Assembly: GCA_016217555.1 (NCBI GenBank)
Contig: JACRHW010000023.1
Coordinates: forward strand, 466-64,465
Origin: Parcubacteria group bacterium
GTDB lineage: Bacteria; Patescibacteriota; Minisyncoccia; UBA6257; JACRHW01
Length of the DNA stretch: 64,000 nucleotides
Direction of reading: 5' to 3'
Within the stretch, counting starts at the first letter, position 1. Each line of letters starts with the position of its first letter. Of this stretch, positions 3,024-55,494 are shown in pieces. The position numbers and the translations under genes were made by a program. The notes beneath the pieces are model-generated. The model was not told the DNA's origin, searched no databases, and worked only from the letters and a program-made list of their open reading frames with translations.

Positions 3024-3052
3024 TTGATAAATCCGTAAAAACATCGTACAAT
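3024..3052 (+). promoter_or_regulatory. Strong sigma70-type promoter candidate for hppA (TTGATA - 17 nt - TACAAT)
   Basis: Near-consensus -35 and -10 hexamers with 17-nt spacing. The predicted TSS (~3059) makes the downstream palindromic element a 5' leader of hppA. Confidence 0.5.
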
Positions 3053-3084
3053 CGTAACATTATTACTTAACGTACTTTGAATTA

Positions 3085-3229
3085 CGAAATGTATATTTCT
3101 CACACGTTCGCCACTCCAGCGAATGGCTCACTCTTCCGCAAATGCTTCGTTGTCAATCCAGCTCGCTCCAACTCGGGATTGACAACACCCAGCTTCGCAT
3201 TCGCGGAATGGTTCGAAACACACATTTCG
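3085..3229. ncRNA. Copy 1 of a ~135-145-nt conserved long-hairpin (imperfect palindrome) element in the hppA 5' region
   Basis: Three nested stems: outer (3085-3099/3215-3229), middle (CCGCAAATGC/GCATTCGCGG) and inner (TTGTCAATCC 3150-3159 / GGATTGACAA 3176-3185) around a 16-nt loop. A small side hairpin (GCCA...TGGC) sits in the left arm. A second copy at 51015-51147 keeps all stems by different or compensatory sequence. Confidence 0.6.
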
Positions 3230-3258
3230 TAATTCAAAATAATCTAACAACAATTTTT

Positions 3259-5247
3259 ATGATGAACTACGTCCCAATCGTTGTTTCGATAGTAGGTATT
3301 CTCTATAGTGCCTATCTCATTCGATCGGTCATGTCGCTCTCTGCAGGTGACAAAAAAATGCAGGATATCTCAAAGGCAATCCAGGAGGGATCCCAAGCCT
3401 ACCTCAATCGACAAAACAAAACCGTCGCTGTCGTTGCGGTTATTATTATTGCCGTCCTCTGGTTTACACTCGGTAAACTTACCGCGCTTGGTTTCCTTGT
3501 TGGTGCCTTCTTGTCTGGACTTGCTGGATACCTTGGCATGAATGTTGCCGTACGAGCAAATGCCCGCACGACAGAAGCTGCCAAGAAAGGTATGGAACAT
3601 GCACTCGAGGTAGCATTTCGAGGTGGCGCCGTAACAGGAATTCTCGTTGTCTCTCTCGGACTTCTTGCGGTAAGTGGCTACTACACACTCACTAAAGATA
3701 TTTCTAGCCTTATTGGTCTCGCTTTTGGTGCAAGCCTTATCTCTGTCTTTGCGCGTCTTGGGGGTGGTATTTATACAAAAAGTGCTGATGTGGGCGCAGA
3801 CCTTGTGGGAAAAGTAGAAACAGATCTTCCGGAGGATAGTCCACGCAACCCAGCTGTCATTGCAGACCTCGTGGGTGATAACGTGGGAGACTGCGCAGGT
3901 ATGGCAGCAGACCTTTTTGAAACCTATACCGTTACCATCATTGCAGCGATGCTTCTTACCAATCTCCTTTTTCCAGGAAATCTCTCCCTCCTTACGCTCC
4001 CCTTTAATATTGGTGCATTAGCCATTATCGCCTCCATTCTTGGTCTTTATTTTGTACGTCTCGATAAATCGAAAGACATCATGCGAGCCCTCTATAAAGG
4101 ACTTTTCTCAAGTGCAATCCTCGCAGCTCTCTTTTTTGGAGGATTCATAAAATATTTCCTTGTTGACAGTGGTACGTTATCACATCGCAATATTTTCCTC
4201 TCACTCCTTATTGGTCTTGTCGTAACTGCTATCACGGTTTTGATTACTGATTACTACACGGCGAAAAAATATAAACCCGTACAAGATGTTGCAGAAGCAG
4301 CAAACTCAGGTCATGGCACAAACGTCATCATGGGTCTCGCAGTGGGGCTTGAAGCAACCGTACTTCCTGTGTTTGTTATCGTAGGAGCCATGCTTACCGC
4401 ATTTCATCTTGCAGGGCTCTATGGCGTAGCACTCGCTGGCCTTGGCATGCTCTCCTTAACTGGTATTGTAGTAGCCATCGACTCATTTGGTCCTATCACC
4501 GACAACGCTGGTGGTATCGCAGAGATGACCGAACAATCCGAACACGTGAGAAAAATTACTGACGCCTTAGACTCTGTAGGGAACACAACAAAAGCCGTTA
4601 CAAAAGGATATGCTATCGCCTCAGCTGGTCTTGCTGCGATCGTTCTCTTCTCATCATATATTCAAGAATTTACAGCAACAGGACGAAAAATTGAACTTAT
4701 TCTTCAGGATCCATGGGTTCTTGCCGGTATCCTCATTGGTGCCTCTATTCCTTATCTCTTTGCCTCCATTGCTATGCGCGCGGTAAGTACTACCGCACAA
4801 GCAGTTGTACAAGAAGTACGTACACAACTCAAAGAACATCCTGGCATCTTAAATGGTAGTGCACTCCCTAACTATGCAAGAACAGTGGATATCGTAACGA
4901 AAGCAGCACTTAAAGAAATGACGGTTCCAGCACTTATCCCTGTCGTAGGTGTTGTAGCAATCGGTCTTGTTCTTGGAGCAAAAGCAGTAGGAGGACTTCT
5001 TATTGGTTCTATCGTAACGGGTATCTTTCTTGCCCTCTCAATGACGACGGGTGGCGCCGCATGGGACAATGCAAAAAAACACATTGAAGACGGCAATCAT
5101 GGTGGTAAAAAATCACAGGCTCATCGCGCAGCAGTAACAGGAGATACTGTTGGGGACGTCTACAAAGACACTGCAGGTCCCGCCATTAACCCAATGATCA
5201 AAGTAGTAAATATAGTGGCACTCCTCATGGTAAGATTTTTAAGGTAA
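3259..5247 (+). CDS. hppA: K+-insensitive/V-type H+-translocating pyrophosphatase
   Basis: About 16 TM helices. Carries the GGG(I)YTKSADVGADLVGKVE and DNVGDCAGMAADLFE signature motifs of membrane pyrophosphatases. The ORF track starts at 3142 inside the palindromic element, so the start at MMNYVP (3259) was chosen; the exact start is uncertain. Confidence 0.9.
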   Translation: MMNYVPIVVSIVGILYSAYLIRSVMSLSAGDKKMQDISKAIQEGSQAYLNRQNKTVAVVAVIIIAVLWFTLGKLTALGFLVGAFLSGLAGYLGMNVAVRANARTTEAAKKGMEHALEVAFRGGAVTGILVVSLGLLAVSGYYTLTKDISSLIGLAFGASLISVFARLGGGIYTKSADVGADLVGKVETDLPEDSPRNPAVIADLVGDNVGDCAGMAADLFETYTVTIIAAMLLTNLLFPGNLSLLTLPFNIGALAIIASILGLYFVRLDKSKDIMRALYKGLFSSAILAALFFGGFIKYFLVDSGTLSHRNIFLSLLIGLVVTAITVLITDYYTAKKYKPVQDVAEAANSGHGTNVIMGLAVGLEATVLPVFVIVGAMLTAFHLAGLYGVALAGLGMLSLTGIVVAIDSFGPITDNAGGIAEMTEQSEHVRKITDALDSVGNTTKAVTKGYAIASAGLAAIVLFSSYIQEFTATGRKIELILQDPWVLAGILIGASIPYLFASIAMRAVSTTAQAVVQEVRTQLKEHPGILNGSALPNYARTVDIVTKAALKEMTVPALIPVVGVVAIGLVLGAKAVGGLLIGSIVTGIFLALSMTTGGAAWDNAKKHIEDGNHGGKKSQAHRAAVTGDTVGDVYKDTAGPAINPMIKVVNIVALLMVRFLR

Positions 5248-7365: not shown

Positions 7366-7437
7366 TGGTCCCAACGGGAATCGGACCCGTATTTACGCAT
7401 TGAAAGCGCGCTGTCCTAACCATTAGACGATGGGACC
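7366..7437 (-). tRNA. tRNA-Glu (anticodon UUC)
   Basis: Hand-folded cloverleaf: 7-bp acceptor GGTCCCA/TGGGACC, D and T arms (T-loop TCCGATT), anticodon loop CTTTCAA. No encoded CCA. Confidence 0.8.
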
Positions 7438-7683: not shown

Positions 7684-7773
7684 GGAGGAGTGGCCGAGTG
7701 GTTTAAGGCGACAGTCTTGAAAACTGTTATACCCGAAAGGGTATCGTGAGTTCGAATCTCACCTCCTCCGCCA
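7684..7773 (+). tRNA. tRNA-Ser (anticodon UGA), class II with long variable arm, CCA encoded
   Basis: Acceptor GGAGGAG/CTCCTCC, 3-bp D stem, anticodon stem ACAGT/ACTGT with loop CTTGAAA, variable-arm hairpin TACCC-GAAA-GGGTA, T-loop TTCGAAT, 3' GCCA. Confidence 0.8.
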
Positions 7774-11448: not shown

Positions 11449-13077
11449 CTAAACAAAAAACGATAGTAACTCTTTTTTAAAGACATGGCACAAAAGAATT
11501 ACGCCGCCCAAAAGCCAAAAAGAAGTGAAGATCAAAGAAAATCGTGTCCATGGTGAGATAGGTGACATTATATGTAAATCCCCCGCAGCATAAGAAGTGG
11601 CTCCAAAAGATGTTGTCGCAATCTCCTTACCCGCTGGAGTTACGAGAACAGACCTTGCGTAGGAAGCCGCGAGCATGAGGGGCCTCCAATTTTCTACCGC
11701 ACGATACTCTACCACACGTACCTGCCAATCTGCATAGTAACTCCTCGACATAGTAAAGTCACTTGCCATATCGGCAATAAGTACTGCCCCGCGCCCCACA
11801 TCTCTTGCCACCAAAAAGGAATTAAACCCTTCATTGCAAAAGATCACAGAAATTTTTCCGAAAAATCCAGACAAGGGCGAGTTATTCTCCCCGACCCCTT
11901 CAGGGAAAGATTTTTGTACTTCCGGAGACCACATATCTTTCAATGGAAGAAATTCACCAAATGGAAATAGATTACGTTTGTAAGTCGTTCTGGGCACACC
12001 ACCACCTGTCACCAGACTTGCTCCGTTATGCCACGCATTCGACACTGTTGCATCCATAAACCCAAAAAGTGCCATATACCCAGGAGACAGAATATTTGAG
12101 ACTTTAAGGTTAAGGGTATCGAGTGAAGGATAATGCGCAAAAAATGAAGAAAGGGCCGAAGGACTACTCGGATATACAGAATATGTCGTCTCTGGAAGCA
12201 AAATAAATTTCTGGGTGGATACCCCCCCCAGATTCCTTTCTTGCACCAAACGCAGCAAGCGATCATACGCGTTCAATGTCCCTAGACTATACTTATCACC
12301 ATCACCCACCTGAACAACAATCCCATTTATACTTGCACCTTTTATGTATATTGAATTCACCCAACTCCGAATCCCCCAACCAATCGTCCCCCACACCACA
12401 AGAACAAGACACACCACGATCATCCGAAAAAAATATGTATTCTTAAACAAAATCCTTTTCTCCAAAACAAAAATCCAGTTAATCATCAAAACACCAAAAG
12501 AGACAATCCAAACACCCCCAACACCCGCCAACTGTCCAAAAATACTTGAAGCAGGAAGAAAATACCCCAAAGAAACCCCCATATCAAAATTCAGATAAAA
12601 AAGAATAAGCTCAATAAAAATCCAGAATGAAGACAGTATTGTAACGATCAAAAAGGTTGACATTCGTGACGCAAAAATCAATCTCTTTGAAACAAGCGAA
12701 TATAATCCCCATGCCAATCCATGTAATAATCCCATAAAGACAAGTATGGCAATCACCACCCCCCAAACGATGTAAGGAGAAATTCCGAGCCACGGATATG
12801 GAGCGGAGATAAGATACACATGAAAGAAAAACACGTAATACAAAAACCCAAAAAGAATACCACCCCAAAAGATATTCTTTTCTGAAAAACCTCTAGTAGA
12901 CAAGATTTTAAACCATGGGAAAAAAGCAATAAATACTAGCGGCCAGATATTTAATGGAGGAAAAGCGACAACAAGAAAAGCGAAAGACAAAAGTACAGCA
13001 AAAATAACCCGAACCAACGGGAAGGAAATAAGCTTTTGAAAAGAAATGGTAATCCTCTTAATAATCACACCTTGCAA
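11449..13077 (-). CDS. lnt: Apolipoprotein N-acyltransferase-like (polytopic membrane N-domain + CN-hydrolase domain)
   Basis: N-terminal ~230 aa has 6-7 TM helices. The C-terminal domain has an ISVIFCNEGF Cys motif similar to the Lnt ICYE catalytic Cys. Contains a G8 homopolymer (12222-12229) in frame. Confidence 0.55.
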   Translation of the reverse strand: MQGVIIKRITISFQKLISFPLVRVIFAVLLSFAFLVVAFPPLNIWPLVFIAFFPWFKILSTRGFSEKNIFWGGILFGFLYYVFFFHVYLISAPYPWLGISPYIVWGVVIAILVFMGLLHGLAWGLYSLVSKRLIFASRMSTFLIVTILSSFWIFIELILFYLNFDMGVSLGYFLPASSIFGQLAGVGGVWIVSFGVLMINWIFVLEKRILFKNTYFFRMIVVCLVLVVWGTIGWGIRSWVNSIYIKGASINGIVVQVGDGDKYSLGTLNAYDRLLRLVQERNLGGVSTQKFILLPETTYSVYPSSPSALSSFFAHYPSLDTLNLKVSNILSPGYMALFGFMDATVSNAWHNGASLVTGGGVPRTTYKRNLFPFGEFLPLKDMWSPEVQKSFPEGVGENNSPLSGFFGKISVIFCNEGFNSFLVARDVGRGAVLIADMASDFTMSRSYYADWQVRVVEYRAVENWRPLMLAASYARSVLVTPAGKEIATTSFGATSYAAGDLHIMSPISPWTRFSLIFTSFWLLGGVILLCHVFKKELLSFFV

Positions 13078-36237: not shown

Positions 36238-36711
36238 CTATCGCGTAATACTAATCGCCACATTGGATTCTGCATGAGGCGCAGAAACAATAATATGATT
36301 GTTGGGTGTTTTTGAGATGCTATAACCAGTACTGTTTGAAGTAGTAAACAAAGGGTCTTTCGGAAGAATAAGAAGATAGGTGCCGTCTTTAGTGAGAAGA
36401 GAAAGGTCAACGAGGTTGGAACACGACCCCACCGTTGCGCATACCTCAGTAGGAACTTCTGTAATTGCTGGAGGAAAAACGTGGTCGTGATCTATTGCAT
36501 AGCGATACACGGCATTGAGTATCGTCGTTACGTCTGTATCCCGTTTTTCATTACGTGTTGTAGCAGATTGCGATGGAGACTTGAGAATGAATACGATAAC
36601 CACCGCACACACAAAAAGAAAGAAAAAAGTGATGAGAAAAGAATGCAATCTTGATTTTTCTTGAGAAGATGAACCCATACTACAACAGTGTACCACGGAA
36701 TCAAAAAACAC
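36238..36711 (-). CDS. Hypothetical membrane-anchored secreted protein
   Basis: ORF with one N-terminal hydrophobic helix. No motif recognized. The start codon is uncertain. Confidence 0.4.
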   Translation of the reverse strand: MFFDSVVHCCSMGSSSQEKSRLHSFLITFFFLFVCAVVIVFILKSPSQSATTRNEKRDTDVTTILNAVYRYAIDHDHVFPPAITEVPTEVCATVGSCSNLVDLSLLTKDGTYLLILPKDPLFTTSNSTGYSISKTPNNHIIVSAPHAESNVAISITR

Positions 36712-36749
36712 GCCTTGTGTACAAAACGTGTTTCTGGATTCAGGATAGT

Positions 36750-44675: not shown

Positions 44676-46364
<1,689 letters not shown>

Positions 46365-46447
46365 TTAGGTGTTAGCTTTTAGGGATAGCCGAAACGAAAC
46401 TAACTCTCTACGCCCCCAATAAACTAATACACTAAAACCCAACAAAC

Positions 46448-46741
46448 TTATTCTGCTAATACTGCGAGGATTTCACTCTCTCGCACGACAAGATATTCTT
46501 TTTGATCGACCTTAACTTCATTAGGAGCATATTTGGTAAAAAGGATCATATCGCCCTTCTTTACGCTCATGGGAATAAGTTCACCCTTCTCACTCACCTT
46601 ACCAGGACCTACGGCTACCACCTTCCCACGCATAGGTTTTTCCTTATCGGCCGTGTCGGGTAAGACAATACCGCTTTTTGTCTTTGCCTCCTCCTTTGCG
46701 GATTCTACAAAGACATGATCAGACAATGGCTGGATCTTCAT
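46448..46741 (-). CDS. groS: Co-chaperonin GroES (Hsp10)
   Basis: MKIQPLSDHVFVE...GIVLPDTA...KGDMILF canonical GroES. Confidence 0.95.
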   Translation of the reverse strand: MKIQPLSDHVFVESAKEEAKTKSGIVLPDTADKEKPMRGKVVAVGPGKVSEKGELIPMSVKKGDMILFTKYAPNEVKVDQKEYLVVRESEILAVLAE

Positions 46742-46828
46742 ATTTTAGCTTTTAGCTTTTAGCTTTTAGCTTTTAGGAACCCCTAACGAACTAACACACT
46801 AAAACCTAATAGTCTTTTAAATTTGTAA

Positions 46829-46855
46829 TTGGCACTCTCGACATATGAGTGCTAA
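46829..46855. promoter_or_regulatory. CIRCE operator (HrcA binding site) upstream of groES: TTGGCACTC-N9-GAGTGCTAA
   Basis: Matches the CIRCE consensus TTAGCACTC-N9-GAGTGCTAA at 17 of 18 positions. 88 nt upstream of the groES ATG. Confidence 0.85.
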
Positions 46856-47259
46856 ATGATTGTAGTTCAAGATATGGTCTCCTGTCAACAAAAAAATAAA
46901 GTAACAAATATGAGGAACCCCTCGACCTTGCTCGGAGTCTTTTTTGCTTTTTAAAAAGCAAAAAAGAAAACCGCCCCAAGGAACGGTTCACAATAATTAC
47001 TTCTTATAGGGACTCTTCAGATACGCCAACACATTTTTCGGATCCGCCCACTTTTCCACAAAAGGCAAACATAGATCGCCAGAACCAAGTCCCACATTAT
47101 CACGAATACTGTCATTCGTAAAAAAAATTCTAACCCCATTAAGTTGTCGCGAAATTTCCCGAGCAACATTATGATTTTTGGAACAAGCTTGACTAAATCG
47201 GTAAACAATATAAAGTCAAAGATTGCCCTTGCAGAAGAAAATCAAAGAACTCTTTTATC

Positions 47260-47295
47260 ACCTCCTTTTACTCACGATCGTGAGTAAAAGGAGGT
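47260..47295. repeat. Perfect 36-bp palindrome ACCTCCTTTTACTCACGA|TCGTGAGTAAAAGGAGGT combining an anti-SD-like arm (CACCTCCTTT) with an SD-like arm (AAGGAGGT)
   Basis: Read directly. Lies in a ~1-kb stretch (46860-47910) without convincing ORFs. Confidence 0.5.
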
Positions 47296-47911
47296 TGGAA
47301 GTTTTGTTTAGCGCATGCAAAACTCCCACGCGTATGAACGACGTAACGAGAGCGGAAGTTGCACGAAAGAACACGGCGCTGGAATGACAGCTAAGTAAAA
47401 TACAAAGAGAGCGTTATGCTCTCCTGACTATTTAAAACTATTACTTAAAATTCTTAAAAAGATTAGAAAAAAAAGTTTGAAACTCCTTTTCTCCTATAGT
47501 AAAACTTGGTGCATAAAAAGATCTTGGAGGTGTCCAATCACGTACAATTTTTGCGCATGCTTCGAGGAGCGTCATATCACCAAAGAGAATTTTCCATTCT
47601 TCGTTATTTTTTATTTTAAAAAGATCCTCTTGGCGAAATCGATGTAATGTGTAGAGAAGTTGAATTACTTCATATGGGGTAAGATTTACAAAAAGAGCGT
47701 GCCATGTGGTATGAAGCTTGCCATGAATCCTTTTTATGTTTCGTTTGTCGCTCTTCTTTGTTATCCCAAGTTACCGACTTCTTGGAATGAGATGATGACT
47801 TGTCTTTACCAAAAACCATCACCCCCCTTCTTTTCCTTACAATTTTCAAACCAGAGCCTACTCTAAAAATATCAAAGTTTTAATGGTTGTGCAACACACC
47901 ACTCCATACGT

Positions 47912-48889
47912 TTACCATAATTTTGTAAAATAGTTTTTGAGAATTTCTTTGAGACGTGCATGGCGTTTTTCAAGATTGGGGTGAAGGTTAAGTTCGTGCG
48001 GTGTCGCAAATAAATTTTGTTCCTCTGGAATTCTTTTCTTTTGCCATTCATACATATTTTTTTCAAGAACATCCCCCATACGTCCGCAAAAAATGAATTC
48101 TAGGAATGCGCGGATAGGATTCCAAGAATACACAACACGTGGACGTTCGGAGTAGCGGACACGTTCTTCAAACGAGGAGCGGAAAAAATAATCACGAATC
48201 CATTCATTTGCCTGGAAAAAATGATTTATAAGTGTTTCGTCACGCATGTACACAGGAACAAGTCGTGTATAAAGAAACATCCCCTCTACAAGCCGATCTT
48301 TCATAACAAGTGAACTCGAAGAGAGATAGTGATTAAGACATATCTTATTCTTTATCTCGATATCTGTATGTTTTGGTTTTCTTCGAATACCAAGCATATC
48401 AAAAAAAATAACGGAAAAAAGTCGTAAGGTATACAAACGATTAGGCTGACTAATTACCAGAAAGTCAAAATCAGAATTCTCGCGCACCGTACCCGCCGCC
48501 AAGGAACCAGAGACGAAAACGCCTTGAATAAACGGGAGGAAACGAAAAAGTGATACATGTTTTTTTACCCCCCTCCATTTCTGATCAAGAATACCATCCG
48601 TTGCAATACGATAAGCACCAAATACTTTATGGGTATTTTGAAGAAAAGAAAAAAAGTAAAAACCATGCTCTTCGCGAACAATACCAAGACCCTTGAGTTG
48701 GTCCAACACATCGAGAATATCTGCATACGATATATCTCGTTCCGCACACGTGGTCACCAGCCGTGGCTTGAGGAGAGAGGAGAAAAGTTCAAACGAAGTA
48801 GGATAAATTTTTAATGCATTGAAACAAGTAAGGGTGGTAAGGAGGGCCTCCTCGAGAGAAGAAAACGTATGCTTCGCTATCATTGTCAT
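47912..48889 (-). CDS. Nucleotidyltransferase-domain protein (Pol-beta superfamily)
   Basis: GSLAAGTVRENSDFDFLVI matches the GS-x9-13-DxD nucleotidyltransferase motif. 325 aa. Confidence 0.55.
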   Translation of the reverse strand: MTMIAKHTFSSLEEALLTTLTCFNALKIYPTSFELFSSLLKPRLVTTCAERDISYADILDVLDQLKGLGIVREEHGFYFFSFLQNTHKVFGAYRIATDGILDQKWRGVKKHVSLFRFLPFIQGVFVSGSLAAGTVRENSDFDFLVISQPNRLYTLRLFSVIFFDMLGIRRKPKHTDIEIKNKICLNHYLSSSSLVMKDRLVEGMFLYTRLVPVYMRDETLINHFFQANEWIRDYFFRSSFEERVRYSERPRVVYSWNPIRAFLEFIFCGRMGDVLEKNMYEWQKKRIPEEQNLFATPHELNLHPNLEKRHARLKEILKNYFTKLW

Positions 48890-49917
48890 GAGGTAATTTC
48901 CTCGTCAGATTCGTCACTAGTCAAAGCAGCAAGGGGCTGCTCCGCCTTCAAAAGTTTATCAGAAAAACGATGCAAACGCTTTTCCGAATCTTCATAGGCA
49001 GAACGCATATTAGTAAGATGTTTCCCTAGTGTAAGAAAACGCTCTTCAAATTTTCTATAATCATCTCGCAATCGAGATAAGTGATTCAAGATCTCCTGTG
49101 TCTGATGCTCAATCTGCATACCTCGCAATCCGATTAACACTGTTTGAAGATACGTGTACAGTGTGCTCGGGGAAACGGGAATAACATGTTTTTTGAAAGC
49201 ATATTCCAAGAGGGTATCCTCACCTCGTACGATACACTCATAGTAGATGTGCTCAGAGGGTACGTACATAAAGGCTATCTCGAGCGTGTGCTCGTCAGGA
49301 AGAATATACTTCTTATTCACCTCGTCAATTCTATTTTTTACCGAACGCACGAACGCCTTTCGAAATGCTGCCTTCTCCTCATCTCCCTCCGCAGCATTAA
49401 AACGTACGAAATCTTCAAGAGGAAACTTTGAATCAATCGATACAAGTTTATCCTTAAACATCACCACCGCATCAACCGTCTCACCTGTCTTAAACGTATG
49501 TTGTTCCTCAAAATGCTCTTTAGGAAGTATCTCAACAAGAAGCTGAGAAAGCATAAGCTCCCCCAACCCACCCCTCATTTTAGGTACAGAGAGAATGTCT
49601 TTGAGCGAAGAAATATCCTTTGCCACCTCACTTACCTTTGTGATCTCCTGCCCCATAGAGTGAATACGCGCCTGAAATAGTTCACTTGAATGGCGCATAC
49701 TCTCGTGCCCCTCGCGAAGACGCGTGTTCATTTGTGTTGTTAAATCATTCATCTGCTGAAATAAAAGCGCATTCATACGATGTGCCTCGGCAGTAGTAGT
49801 TTGAAGATGTACCGCAAACTTCTCATCACGATGTTTTGAGTTGAGAGAAAACGTGTACAAAAAATAACACAGGACAAGAAATCCTAAGAATAAGATACCT
49901 AGCAATAGTTGGGTCAT
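48886..49917 (-). CDS. rmuC: DNA recombination protein RmuC
   Basis: N-terminal TM, long coiled-coil, and conserved RmuC C-terminal region (...VDAVVMFKDKLVSIDSKFPLEDF..., ...IAFMYVPSEHIYYE...). Confidence 0.75.
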   Translation of the reverse strand: MTQLLLGILFLGFLVLCYFLYTFSLNSKHRDEKFAVHLQTTTAEAHRMNALLFQQMNDLTTQMNTRLREGHESMRHSSELFQARIHSMGQEITKVSEVAKDISSLKDILSVPKMRGGLGELMLSQLLVEILPKEHFEEQHTFKTGETVDAVVMFKDKLVSIDSKFPLEDFVRFNAAEGDEEKAAFRKAFVRSVKNRIDEVNKKYILPDEHTLEIAFMYVPSEHIYYECIVRGEDTLLEYAFKKHVIPVSPSTLYTYLQTVLIGLRGMQIEHQTQEILNHLSRLRDDYRKFEERFLTLGKHLTNMRSAYEDSEKRLHRFSDKLLKAEQPLAALTSDESDEEITS

Positions 49918-50990
49918 TACAATTTGTCTTTATACTTTTCTAGAAATTCACGAAATTCACCGTCTAAACGCGTAGGGAATTTAAGGTGAACCTCTATGAT
50001 AAGTTTACCACGGCGAGAGGAGTTGAGGTGAGGAAATCCCCTTCCCTCGAACGTTACCACCTGTGGGGTTGCCTTGAATGGCTGTACATGAATACGAAGC
50101 TTCTCCCCATCGATATTCTCGAAACTAACCTCCTTCCCTAAAAGTGCCTCTGCCACGTTTACTGTAATTGCAGACATGGTATCAGCTCCATGACGAATAA
50201 ATCGCGTGTGTGGTTTTATATGAATACGAAGATAAAGATCGCCCGTACCCACCCCCCTCTCACCCGCTGAACCTGCACCCACTACTTTAATAATTTGTCC
50301 GTCATCGATACCCGCATTGATATCGACCGACAATTCTTTGCGTTTCTTTATGCGTCCAGCACCTCTACAAACATTGCACTCCTTCTCAGGTACATTTCCC
50401 TTCCCACGACAGACACTGCAGGTCACCACCTTTGCAAAAGTACCAAAAAAACTTTTCTTTGTTTCACGAATCTCTCCGCGCCCATTACATTCTGTACATT
50501 GTTTCGTCTTTGAAGAAAGTGCGCCTGTTCCCTTACAATCAACACATGAAATAAAATCATCAAAGGAAAGTTTCTTCGTAATACCCTTAAACGCCTCTTC
50601 GAAAGTCATCTCAACCTCTTGTACAATGTCATTCCCTTTCTCACGAGTTCTTCGTCGCTGTGAAAGCCCAATATCTTCAAAGAGATCCCCGAACATATCT
50701 CCCAACCCCGAAGCATCAAACCCCTCGAAATTAAAACCACCCGACTGAAAATCGAAGTCACCAAAACCCCCCTGACCCTGCGAACCAGGTGCTGTACCAA
50801 ATTGATCATAATGCTGACGCTTGCCTTTATCAGAAAGCACCTGATACGCCTCAGTTACCTCTTTAAATTTCTGCTCATTTCCGCCCGCACGATCAGGGTG
50901 ATGTTCCCGTGCAAGTTTTCGATACGCCTTTTTAATCTCCTCCTCTGAGGAATTTTTTGAAACACCTAAAATAGAATAAAAATCTTTCAT
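49917..50990 (-). CDS. dnaJ: Chaperone DnaJ (Hsp40, type I)
   Basis: J domain with HPD (YRKLAREHHPDR), a G/F-rich region, four CxxCxGxG zinc-finger repeats, and a C-terminal substrate-binding domain. Confidence 0.9.
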   Translation of the reverse strand: MKDFYSILGVSKNSSEEEIKKAYRKLAREHHPDRAGGNEQKFKEVTEAYQVLSDKGKRQHYDQFGTAPGSQGQGGFGDFDFQSGGFNFEGFDASGLGDMFGDLFEDIGLSQRRRTREKGNDIVQEVEMTFEEAFKGITKKLSFDDFISCVDCKGTGALSSKTKQCTECNGRGEIRETKKSFFGTFAKVVTCSVCRGKGNVPEKECNVCRGAGRIKKRKELSVDINAGIDDGQIIKVVGAGSAGERGVGTGDLYLRIHIKPHTRFIRHGADTMSAITVNVAEALLGKEVSFENIDGEKLRIHVQPFKATPQVVTFEGRGFPHLNSSRRGKLIIEVHLKFPTRLDGEFREFLEKYKDKL

Positions 50991-51014
50991 AGTTTGTTAA
51001 TTTAAATTGCACCA

Positions 51015-51147
51015 CACCTATCTCTCACACGTTCGCCACTCCAGCGGTGGCTCACTCTTCCGCAGGCGCTTCGTTGTCAATCCAATTCGTTTCACTCAGG
51101 ATTGACAACACCCAGCTTCGCACCTACGGAATGGTTCGAGATAGGTG
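51015..51147. ncRNA. Copy 2 of the conserved long-hairpin element, inside the dnaK operon between the membrane-protein gene and dnaJ
   Basis: ~85% identical to copy 1 in the core. The outer stem is CACCTATCTC (51015-51024) / GAGATAGGTG (51138-51147), a different sequence from copy 1 but in the same position. The middle stem carries compensatory changes. Confidence 0.6.
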
Positions 51148-51167
51148 TACCGCAATTTAAAATATCG

Positions 51168-52196
51168 TTATGAAAGTAAAAGTGTCTCTTTACTTCGCGG
51201 TTCGAATTGAATAGTTACGATACCTATGATTATCAAAAGCTCAAGAAAAATGTATCCTACCACAAGAACTCCCCAATACACAAAAATACCGAAACTCCTC
51301 ACGATAAGAAAACCAAGTACTCCGATAGCAACAAGAAATAACGGCGTCTCTTTAAAGCCCTGCGGAATTATTTTTTCATTGATACTGCTATATGCCACAT
51401 CATAAAGGGACGTTGAGGGTTCAACGCGGGATCCTGTAAACTCCTCCCACTTGCCCCCCAGCTCCTTAACCACATCACGCACTATCTGCTTTTTTTGTGC
51501 TTTCACTTGGGGTGTATTTAAATCTATACCTGCTCCAAGGGATTCTTTTGCATATACATCAAATCTTCGTTCTGCCTCCTGCTTCAGAAAAGCGTCAAAT
51601 TCTAATCCTCCACTAAATCCTGGCAAGAACTTTTGAATAATAGGCATCGTGGAATCAATCATGTCTCGTACATACACCTCTGGGAGAACTACTCGTTTAG
51701 TAGCAACTCCAAACATGCTCATATAAAGCATTACAAGGAACAAGGCGAGTGCATTAAGATACCACCCCATACCACCACGAATTACCTTACTCCACCGTAT
51801 CTTAAGCCCCTCTTCTTTTTCATGAAATATCAAATGACCTCCCCACATCACTGCAAAGATAATGAGTGTTAAAAAGAGAATATCAAGAACATCCTTTGGA
51901 AAAAAAGCTGCTCCTATGGACAATCCCACCACACCCACAATATGCACAATAACAACCAGCCTCCTTTCTGTAAAAAGAAGTGCGCTCAAACAAAGAAAAG
52001 AAAGAAAAATAATACTGCCACCCAAAAACCACCACGAGCTCGACATTCCAAATAAAGGAATAAGCGAGAGCGTTCTTCCTCCTAAAAAACCGAGAACCAA
52101 CGCGGTAACAAAAATAAACACAACGCCAAGAAACGCCTTAATAGGCGTCCTGGTTTTTTCTATATTACTATTCAGTTCCTTCTTTTTTAGGTTCAT
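51168..52196 (-). CDS. Hypothetical polytopic membrane protein encoded within the dnaK operon
   Basis: 342 aa. Basic N-terminus then ~7 TM helices plus a soluble C-terminal part. Overlaps the dnaK stop by 29 nt. Confidence 0.55.
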
Positions 52197-55413: not shown

Positions 55414-55445
55414 TCAACTGTCCTAAACTAGCCTGCTCTCTTTTA

Positions 55446-55473
55446 ATGTCATTCCCGCTTGTGCGGGAATGAC
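55446..55473. repeat. Palindrome TGTCATTCCCGC-TTGT-GCGGGAATGACA upstream of the hrcA promoter region
   Basis: 12-bp arms read directly. No adjacent T-run on either strand. Confidence 0.45.
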
Positions 55474-55494
55474 ATGAGTATATTTATATAAAAA

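Follow-up and report, generated by a model that had tools for sequence, protein, structure and literature searches.

Genomes of the Patescibacteria (CPR) are very small and thought to be poor in repetitive and mobile DNA and, to our knowledge, non-coding elements are almost undocumented in them. For the ERIC, Correia and REP elements, roles as a kind of punctuation have been proposed. The closest analogue of the element described here appears to be the REPIN, a hairpin-forming doublet of REP sequences which is mobilised by RAYT (TnpA-REP). REPINs also show compensatory changes across the hairpin formed by a single strand (PMC3116915). Our element is present twice in the window, the stretch of 64,000 nucleotides of a Parcubacteria contig (JACRHW010000023.1) that was analysed, and belongs to a previously undescribed family from a clade of Parcubacteria (Patescibacteria/CPR). 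Its layout is the reverse of that usual in bacterial palindromic repeats: sequence is conserved in the core, and the ends may change freely provided that they remain paired. On balance, it is probably a non-autonomous mobile hairpin of the REPIN/ERIC kind, propagated or used as a single strand (ssDNA or RNA).

The initial annotation had described an imperfect palindrome at 3085-3229 and 51015-51147. Both copies are real, but the extent given for them was too short. Their outer stems, correctly described as different in sequence yet self-complementary, are longer than had been stated (about 23-27 bp), and the element therefore reaches on both sides to the borders listed in Table 1. The outer arms of the two copies are unlike over most of their length, and within each copy 22-23 of the 23 positions pair; in copy 1 the pairing can be extended to 27 bp. 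Other details of the earlier description can be read directly in the sequence: the inner stem (TTGTCAATCC/GGATTGACAA) is the same in both copies with different loops, the middle stems are separated by two double changes from A-T to G-C, and a side hairpin is found in the left arm of each copy. The middle stems also differ by three single changes that lead to G-U pairs on the minus strand. The window contains the 22-24-mers of the core exactly two times, compared to a chance expectation of 0.00, and a search of the window with a covariance model (CM), run with filters off, detected only these two copies. A plus-strand ORF runs through copy 1 (3077-3232), but its frame is shifted in copy 2 by an indel of 1 nt, so that the peptide is not conserved and a coding function was rejected.

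Table 1. Positions of the element copies, their parts and adjacent features (window coordinates unless a locus number is given)
Feature	Position	Strand	Evidence or remark
Copy 1, whole element, 161 nt	3077..3237	-	CM match, 171 bits; located in the hppA leader, interval between promoter and ATG
Copy 1, outer stem, 5' arm UUGAAUUACGAAAUGUGUGUUUC	3215..3237	-	23/23 positions paired with 3077-3099, including G-U possible on the minus strand only
Copy 1, outer stem, 3' arm GAAAUAUACAUUUCGUAAUUCAA	3077..3099	-	partner of 3215-3237
Copy 1, long hairpin	3134..3208	-	consensus structure and pair counts
Copy 1, middle stem	3197-3208 with 3134-3145	-	consensus structure and pair counts
Copy 1, conserved internal loop GAAGCUGGG	3188-3196, opposite AA 3146-3147	-	consensus structure
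Copy 1, inner stem	3176-3187 with 3148-3159	-	consensus structure and pair counts
Copy 1, variable apical loop	3160-3175	-	consensus structure
Copy 1, side hairpin GCCAUU-CGCUGG-AGUGGC	3110..3127	-	helix 6: compensatory changes in 4/6 pairs; loop CGCUGG conserved
Copy 1, conserved junction strands	GAGUGA 3128-3133; GAACGUGUGA 3100-3109	-	on both sides of the side hairpin
Copy 2, whole element, 159 nt	51002..51160	-	CM match, 171.9 bits
Copy 2, outer arms	51138-51160 and 51002-51024	-	
hppA (membrane pyrophosphatase), downstream of copy 1	3259..5247	+	Pfam PF03030, E = 1e-253
dnaJ, downstream of copy 2	49917..50990	-	Pfam DnaJ domains
Sigma-70-like hppA promoter TTGATA-17-TACAAT	3024..3052	+	10/12 consensus match; conserved in L024 and L025
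Second module	L007:1655-1775; L015:9388-9508; L010:1005-1122; L011:400-515	-; +; -; +	

On the strand that corresponds to the minus strand of the window, the members of the family fold into a three-way junction composed of an outer stem, a two-part long hairpin and a side hairpin. The outer stem comprises 21-30 bp (median about 24 bp) and has a loose consensus, UUGAAUUACAAAAUAUCUCUUCC; divergence rises toward the tip of the element. The junction strand GAACCA leads to the middle stem of 12 bp, which in one subfamily contains a 3x3 purine-rich internal loop. It is separated by a conserved asymmetric internal loop (G-N-AGC-W-GGG opposite AA) from the inner stem, which also has 12 bp and begins with an invariant U-G pair. 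The apical loop is variable in length and able to form a small covarying hairpin of its own. A second junction strand, (A)GAGUGA, precedes the side hairpin of 6-10 bp with its conserved loop CGCUGG, and the last junction strand is GAACGUGUGA. In all 18 copies taken together, the core loops and junction strands are kept in sequence, the stems in pairing only.

These 18 copies, about 160-185 nt in length, stem from the window, one Parcubacteria MAG (JACRHX01) and 12-13 metagenome contigs from groundwater and lake. An exact-match scan of reference genomes yielded three real copies, all of them in JACRHX01 (loci L003-L005), and three further matches due to chance (e.g. L006). The metagenome scan yielded 13 contigs from groundwater and lake samples, every one of which carries a real copy. 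The CM was built from 16 copies and recovered all 16; it added a second copy in L004, whose inner stem shows a compensatory change (UUGUCAACCC/GGGUUGACAA), and a copy in L010 that is incomplete at the contig end. Together, the two scans and the CM search of the fetched loci provided 16 copies in addition to the window pair. As the collection relied on inner-stem patterns, the breadth of the family and the variability of the inner stem are underestimated. No two copies are near-identical and nearly every copy has an outer stem of its own. No copies were found in about 67 kb of more distant relatives (L020-L025) or in viral contigs, phages and plasmids, and blastn gave no match in 5,426 E. coli genomes.

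To what extent the stems are maintained can be judged from the alignment of the 18 copies, which was fitted to the CM. In this alignment, 97.2% of the cells are standard pairs, changes on both sides occur in 34 of the 53 pairs and the covariation score is 0.484. Shuffled controls (0/500) did not reach any of the three values, and moving the partners by 1-3 columns reduced the pairing to only 33-47%. An independent analysis with MAFFT and RNAalifold gave the same picture (34 of 55 pairs compensated). That the inner stem is invariant carries no weight in this context because the search patterns partly forced this. From the degree of pairing and compensation, which no shuffle approached, it can be concluded that secondary structure is under selection and that the element is not a passive repeat, as the initial annotation had argued. 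It had named many copies with randomly broken stems as the outcome speaking against this idea; the opposite was found, since the additional copies have intact stems.

Folding of both strands, also suggested at the outset, revealed that the minus strand is far more stable than the plus strand in copy 1 (-80.0 versus -56.9 kcal/mol) as well as in copy 2 (-80.1 versus -61.2 kcal/mol). For the shorter segments of the initial annotation, z-scores of -8.2 and -8.9 (copies 1 and 2) were obtained on the minus strand and of -5.4 and -6.7 on the plus strand. The minus strand folds better because positions with C-A mismatches in the plus strand form G-U pairs in the minus strand. In the family, 76 cells with G-U or U-G stand against 17 with A-C or C-A (59 against 17 without the invariant pair), and the same core-defined strand is the more stable one in 18/18 copies. 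In the window this strand is the minus strand, antisense to hppA. Pairs of G and U at this frequency, one of them an invariant U-G, are compatible with RNA and with ssDNA alike.

A mutational artefact of replication was considered as the source of the G-U bias and rejected. Measured on the folding strand, the flanks have a positive GC skew at 5 loci and a negative one at 12, whereas the element's own skew ranges from +0.16 to +0.32 on the core-defined strand at 17/17 loci tested, whatever the skew of the flanks and despite the strong skew of the window. Thus, the strand asymmetry belongs to the element; it depends neither on the replication strand nor on the direction of neighbouring genes. 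In the window (1-64000), the plus-strand GC skew stays below zero over the full length (-0.09 to -0.25) and the minus strand carries most genes, from which it follows that the whole window belongs to a single replichore whose leading strand is the minus strand. The GC content of the element is 0.45-0.56, compared to 0.41-0.44 in the flanks.

The copies are located in tight intergenic gaps in any orientation, and the distance to a start or stop codon is often 5-15 nt. Some lie within operons, either in sense (copy 2, L009, L012) or in antisense direction (both L004 copies, L017), others between divergent (copy 1, L005, L007, L015) or convergent genes (L008, L018). Copy 2 is 8 nt away from the stop codon of a 342-aa gene and 11-13 nt from the dnaJ start codon. 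The neighbours are housekeeping genes encoding HppA, DnaJ/DnaK, MnmA, LepA, EF-G, TopA (topoisomerase I), SMC, SHMT and DnaX. A gene for a 299-aa protein with a signal-peptide-like N-terminus (secreted) is also among the neighbours. The 342-aa gene between dnaK and dnaJ (51168-52196, minus strand) has no Pfam or NCBIfam match; an orthologue (374 aa) is present in L022, and the hrcA-grpE-dnaK-dnaJ-rmuC operon of L023, similar in other respects, lacks the gene.

Comparison of orthologous sites revealed that the hairpin is gained or lost as a whole. In the hppA leader of the relatives L024 and L025, whose HppA proteins are 84% and 82% identical to that of the window, the site is empty: the -10 box and the subsequent CGTAACATT are kept and directly followed by a short leader. 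In the window, the whole hairpin is situated between ...AACGTAC and ATAATC... without a direct repeat. Upstream of dnaJ, where the window possesses the element, dnaJ of L022 is separated from the orthologue of the 342-aa gene by just 12 nt. The element of L018 lies between two convergent terminators, which in L017 are about 10 nt apart with neither an element nor a palindrome between them. On the 5' side of the L018 hairpin, 22 extra nucleotides (TTACACCTACAAAAGACTCTAC) were noticed (L018:2551-2575 versus L017:6003-6092) that repeat 11 nt of the adjacent terminator arm; they could be a trace left by the insertion or represent a co-mobilised flank.

Besides presence and absence, inversion and replacement were observed. 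At the dnaJ site of L014 (DnaJ 85.5% identical), the element is on the opposite strand relative to dnaJ as compared to the window; its core belongs to a different subfamily while its outermost stem, UUUAAAUUG, is the same. Between the orthologous loci L007 and L015, identity reaches about 91% in the flanks and 92-100% in the outermost 12 bp of the arms but only 76% in the interior; the side hairpins differ, and four double changes in the outer stem are all compensated. A 67-nt spacer upstream of dnaJ in a relative (L020:682-748 and L021:924-990, DnaJ 87% identical) is weakly similar to the dnaJ-proximal half of the L014 element and may be a decayed half-element.

It was also considered that the element inserts into pre-existing palindromes, the outermost stem being host-derived. 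This is disfavoured by the three empty sites, which have no palindrome of this kind, and by the window, which lacks empty hairpins of that type. A hairpin at 36696-36743 on the minus strand (GAATCCAGAAACACG...CGTGTTTTTTGATTC), located right after a stop codon, gave a weak match to the outer stem of the CM (21 bits, E = 0.003). In all likelihood this is an ordinary terminator, yet it could also represent a coreless outer stem.

The initial annotation had placed copy 1 in the 5' UTR of hppA as a candidate structured RNA. A promoter-like site is indeed present upstream of copy 1, as had been predicted, and its -10 region and the subsequent nucleotides are conserved in relatives. This promoter belongs to the host and not to the element, and it would transcribe copy 1 on the weaker-folding strand. 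The position of copy 1 between promoter and ATG and that of copy 2 directly upstream of dnaJ on the same strand would suit a cis-regulatory RNA (riboswitch, thermometer or leader) of the two genes, but this reading is contradicted and very improbable. The better-folding, G-U-tolerant strand of copy 1 is antisense to hppA; the relatives with 82-84% identical HppA keep promoter and leader without the element; the dnaJ site has an inverted element in L014 and none in L022; and the other 16 copies lie beside unrelated genes, some of them antisense within operons. As the element is present or absent at the same site in relatives and folds on one strand, it is no switch controlling hppA. Membership of the riboswitches or cis-leaders was likewise rejected, since instead of a constant position on the same strand before a conserved set of genes, mixed neighbours and orientations were found. 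At gathering thresholds, Rfam 15 detected only tRNAs and one unrelated SAM riboswitch in the window and 15 loci, and at E ≤ 10 only weak sub-threshold matches (mir-1181, 19 bits; whalefall-1, 14 bits). Even at E = 10 the element thus matched no Rfam family; the initial annotation had not recognised it as a known riboswitch or repeat class either. Both copies are insertions, one into the hppA leader (copy 1) and the other into the dnaK-dnaJ operon (copy 2); effects on these genes would be side effects.

Given these insertions, the mobile elements with which the family might be confused have to be considered. Like a MITE of an ordinary DDE transposon, the element is short, non-coding, intergenic and multi-copy and has inverted ends. 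If it were such a MITE or a decaying palindrome, the hairpin would be a by-product of terminal inverted repeats and its structure unselected. This is contradicted by the covariation and can hardly be upheld: neutral decay would have broken the pairing of the window copies' arms, which differ in sequence, and the interior is a conserved asymmetric three-way junction with covarying helices. Furthermore, the termini differ between nearly all copies, even inside one genome, and comparisons of filled with empty sites, in which the boundaries are good to a few bases and the flanks have diverged, revealed no direct repeat at the hairpin boundaries. The element thus lacks both the conserved terminal inverted repeats and the target-site duplication of MITEs, and the fetched loci contain no full-length IS with the same ends.

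Support for the mobile single-strand hairpin, which we prefer, comes from the gain or loss of whole hairpins, the lack of target duplications and conserved termini, and the inverted or replaced interiors. A trans-acting protein might recognise the folded single strand by its asymmetric loop, the CGCUGG hairpin and the junction. The same protein would cut and join at the base of the long outer stem, in a single-strand transposition like that of REPIN/RAYT or IS200/IS605. An action at this position would explain why selection keeps the pairing of the outer stem rather than its sequence. Gene conversion and recombination between copies and between inverted arms could give rise to swapped and flipped cores. 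What counts against the mobile reading is that neither a transposase nor a reverse transcriptase nor any other candidate partner was detected in about 260 kb of fetched sequence by Pfam, NCBIfam and motif scans. According to Pfam and NCBIfam, the neighbours of the element are only housekeeping proteins or proteins without an assigned family, with no transposase among them; an all-against-all BLAST of the neighbouring ORFs revealed no recurrent protein family beyond synteny, and a motif scan of 397 ORFs no HUH+Y candidate. Moreover, the orientation of the copies (12:5) does not follow the replication strand, which argues against a mechanism of the IS200/IS605 type, for which such a correlation is predicted. 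The distinct outer stems and the lack of near-identical copies fit long-term maintenance in place better than recent bursts of transposition.

Because there is no replication-strand bias, and in view of the many G-U pairs, the intact copies and their distinct stems, an RNA gene or a host function has to be kept in mind. The copies might be independently expressed genes of a trans-acting structured ncRNA, perhaps with a protein partner, that were duplicated around the genome, a possibility which we regard as unlikely. In that case, the stems could be neutral scaffolding or a determinant of specificity or processing, e.g. double-stranded RNA cut by RNase III. The strand-specific fold with many G-U pairs, which is independent of host context, would agree with such genes, as would the GC content raised above that of the flanks and the conservation pattern, the unpaired loops and junction strands being most conserved as in protein-binding RNAs. 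All copies are intact and distinct, suggesting selection on each of them in place. By contrast, the gaps of 5-15 nt at many copies offer neither room for a promoter nor conservation of one, and no sigma-70-like consensus site was found upstream on the folding strand of either window copy. Insertion or loss of a whole hairpin and inversion at one site are characteristic of mobile elements, and for the outer-stem sequences of the two window copies no match was obtained elsewhere in the window or in viral contigs. A use of these arms as guides or spacers, tested for both window copies, was rejected on the same grounds.

Distinctly unlikely is that the element is a punctuation element domesticated by the host, acting on neighbouring transcripts or on DNA in whichever orientation it is transcribed. 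It would then stabilise mRNA, be a target of RNase III/E, act as a terminator or insulator, or form a cruciform or protein-binding site. It would be in line with such a role that the copies are always intergenic, often right after stop codons, inside operons or in leaders of housekeeping genes, that both strands fold far better than shuffled sequence, and that two sites (upstream of dnaJ; L007/L015) are occupied in more than one lineage. On the other hand, the G-U bias of one strand follows the core and not the direction of host transcription, the hairpin is not followed by a U-tract, and close relatives lack the element at the same sites.

More tentatively than the mobile hairpin itself, and with a chance well below even, we suggest a new kind of structure-defined mobile or functional nucleic acid, in which a protein would read the junction core of one strand and exert its action a measured distance away, where a stem of 21-30 bp with variable sequence has its foot. 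If this were true, the ends of transposition would be set by a molecular ruler, or the element would be part of an RNA-protein system with specificity in the variable duplex arms.

Some other structures were noticed near the element and in other parts of the window. Three or four loci share a second non-coding module, conserved and about 70-105 nt long, which is located on the strand of the element and precedes it by 40-70 nt (Table 1). It ends with CTCCCCCTTGAGGRCTC and a U-run, which resembles a terminator, and in L010 and L011 its ends pair (CCACCCAAACC/GGTTTGGGTGG). The module has no Rfam match, is absent from the window and may be an unannotated small RNA gene. In L015, dnaX is located downstream of the element, and L007 has a dnaX homologue at the same position; L015 also harbours the SAM riboswitch mentioned above (12057-12166, plus strand), which is unrelated to the element. 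A palindrome of the window at 55444-55477 (TAATGTCATTCCCGC-TTGT-GCGGGAATGACATGA) resembles GTCATTCCCGCGAAAGCGGGAATCC beside the element in L003 (about 4146-4170), and the two may represent a second family of short REP-like palindromes. A near-perfect palindrome of 17 bp at 47259-47296 (CACCTCCTTTTACTCACG-ATCG-TGAGTAAAAGGAGGT) combines an arm similar to the anti-Shine-Dalgarno sequence with an arm similar to the Shine-Dalgarno sequence; it is part of a 1.5-kb stretch (46346-47912) without an ORF of at least 150 aa. Two divergent tRNA genes of the window (7366-7437, minus strand; 7684-7770, plus strand) are unrelated to the element.

Our data demonstrate that CPR genomes keep a highly structured, strand-specific repeat between core housekeeping genes. 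The CM can be used for annotation and prevents mistaken calls of riboswitch-like leaders; the hairpin in the hppA leader is an example, being an insertion and not a dedicated regulator. The element is also a marker of recent genome change in CPR lineages. Its conserved loops might serve as bait for the protein that recognises them, possibly a new single-strand transposase or an RNA-binding partner.

Among the known systems that depend on folded single strands, retrons (msr/msd) were rejected since no RT domain is encoded by the flanking genes (HppA, the 299-aa secreted protein, DnaJ, the 342-aa protein and others). The element has in common with integron attC sites that structure prevails over sequence, that folding is strand-specific and that tight gaps between genes are occupied. 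However, attC sites keep their outer R''/R' sites, have a variable centre and occur in cassette arrays of one direction beside an integrase, whereas our element has variable ends around a conserved centre and is found in mixed orientations beside core housekeeping genes. Moreover, the R'' (RYYYAAC) and R' (GTTRRRY) sites do not fit the ends of most copies, and with the housekeeping neighbours this led to the rejection of attC. With IS200/IS605 and PATE elements, the family shares the lack of target-site duplications, the dispensability of terminal inverted repeats and a hairpin recognised on one strand. It differs from IS200/IS605 elements, in which either end has separate subterminal hairpins, insertion takes place 3' of a fixed tetra- or pentanucleotide and the orientation follows the replication fork: the 5' flanks of our element vary with only a loose TAY tendency, its orientation is 12:5 by GC skew, and TnpA was not found.

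ERIC/IRU, Correia (NEMIS), RUP/BOX and other bacterial MITE-like intergenic elements are also imperfect palindromes of 100-170 bp in transcribed intergenic regions, found in leaders and operons in either orientation and present or absent among relatives. However, they have conserved terminal inverted repeats and usually a duplication of TA or similar, while a conserved asymmetric core, variable termini and a G-U bias of one strand are peculiar to our element, which has no sequence similarity to these families. The blastn search of E. coli genomes likewise indicated no similarity to the REP, BIME and ERIC sequences of enterobacteria. REPINs come nearest: the element is, like them, short, non-coding, intergenic, present in both orientations, non-autonomous, persistent and adjacent to housekeeping genes, and it forms a long hairpin as single-stranded DNA or RNA with compensatory changes. 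By contrast, no RAYT (Y1 HUH) was seen among the scanned loci, and the element possesses a three-way junction with a side hairpin. Another difference is the distribution of conserved sequence: REPINs have conserved ends (REP 16-mers with GTAG/CGTC tags) and a variable centre, while in our element the centre is conserved and the ends are variable.
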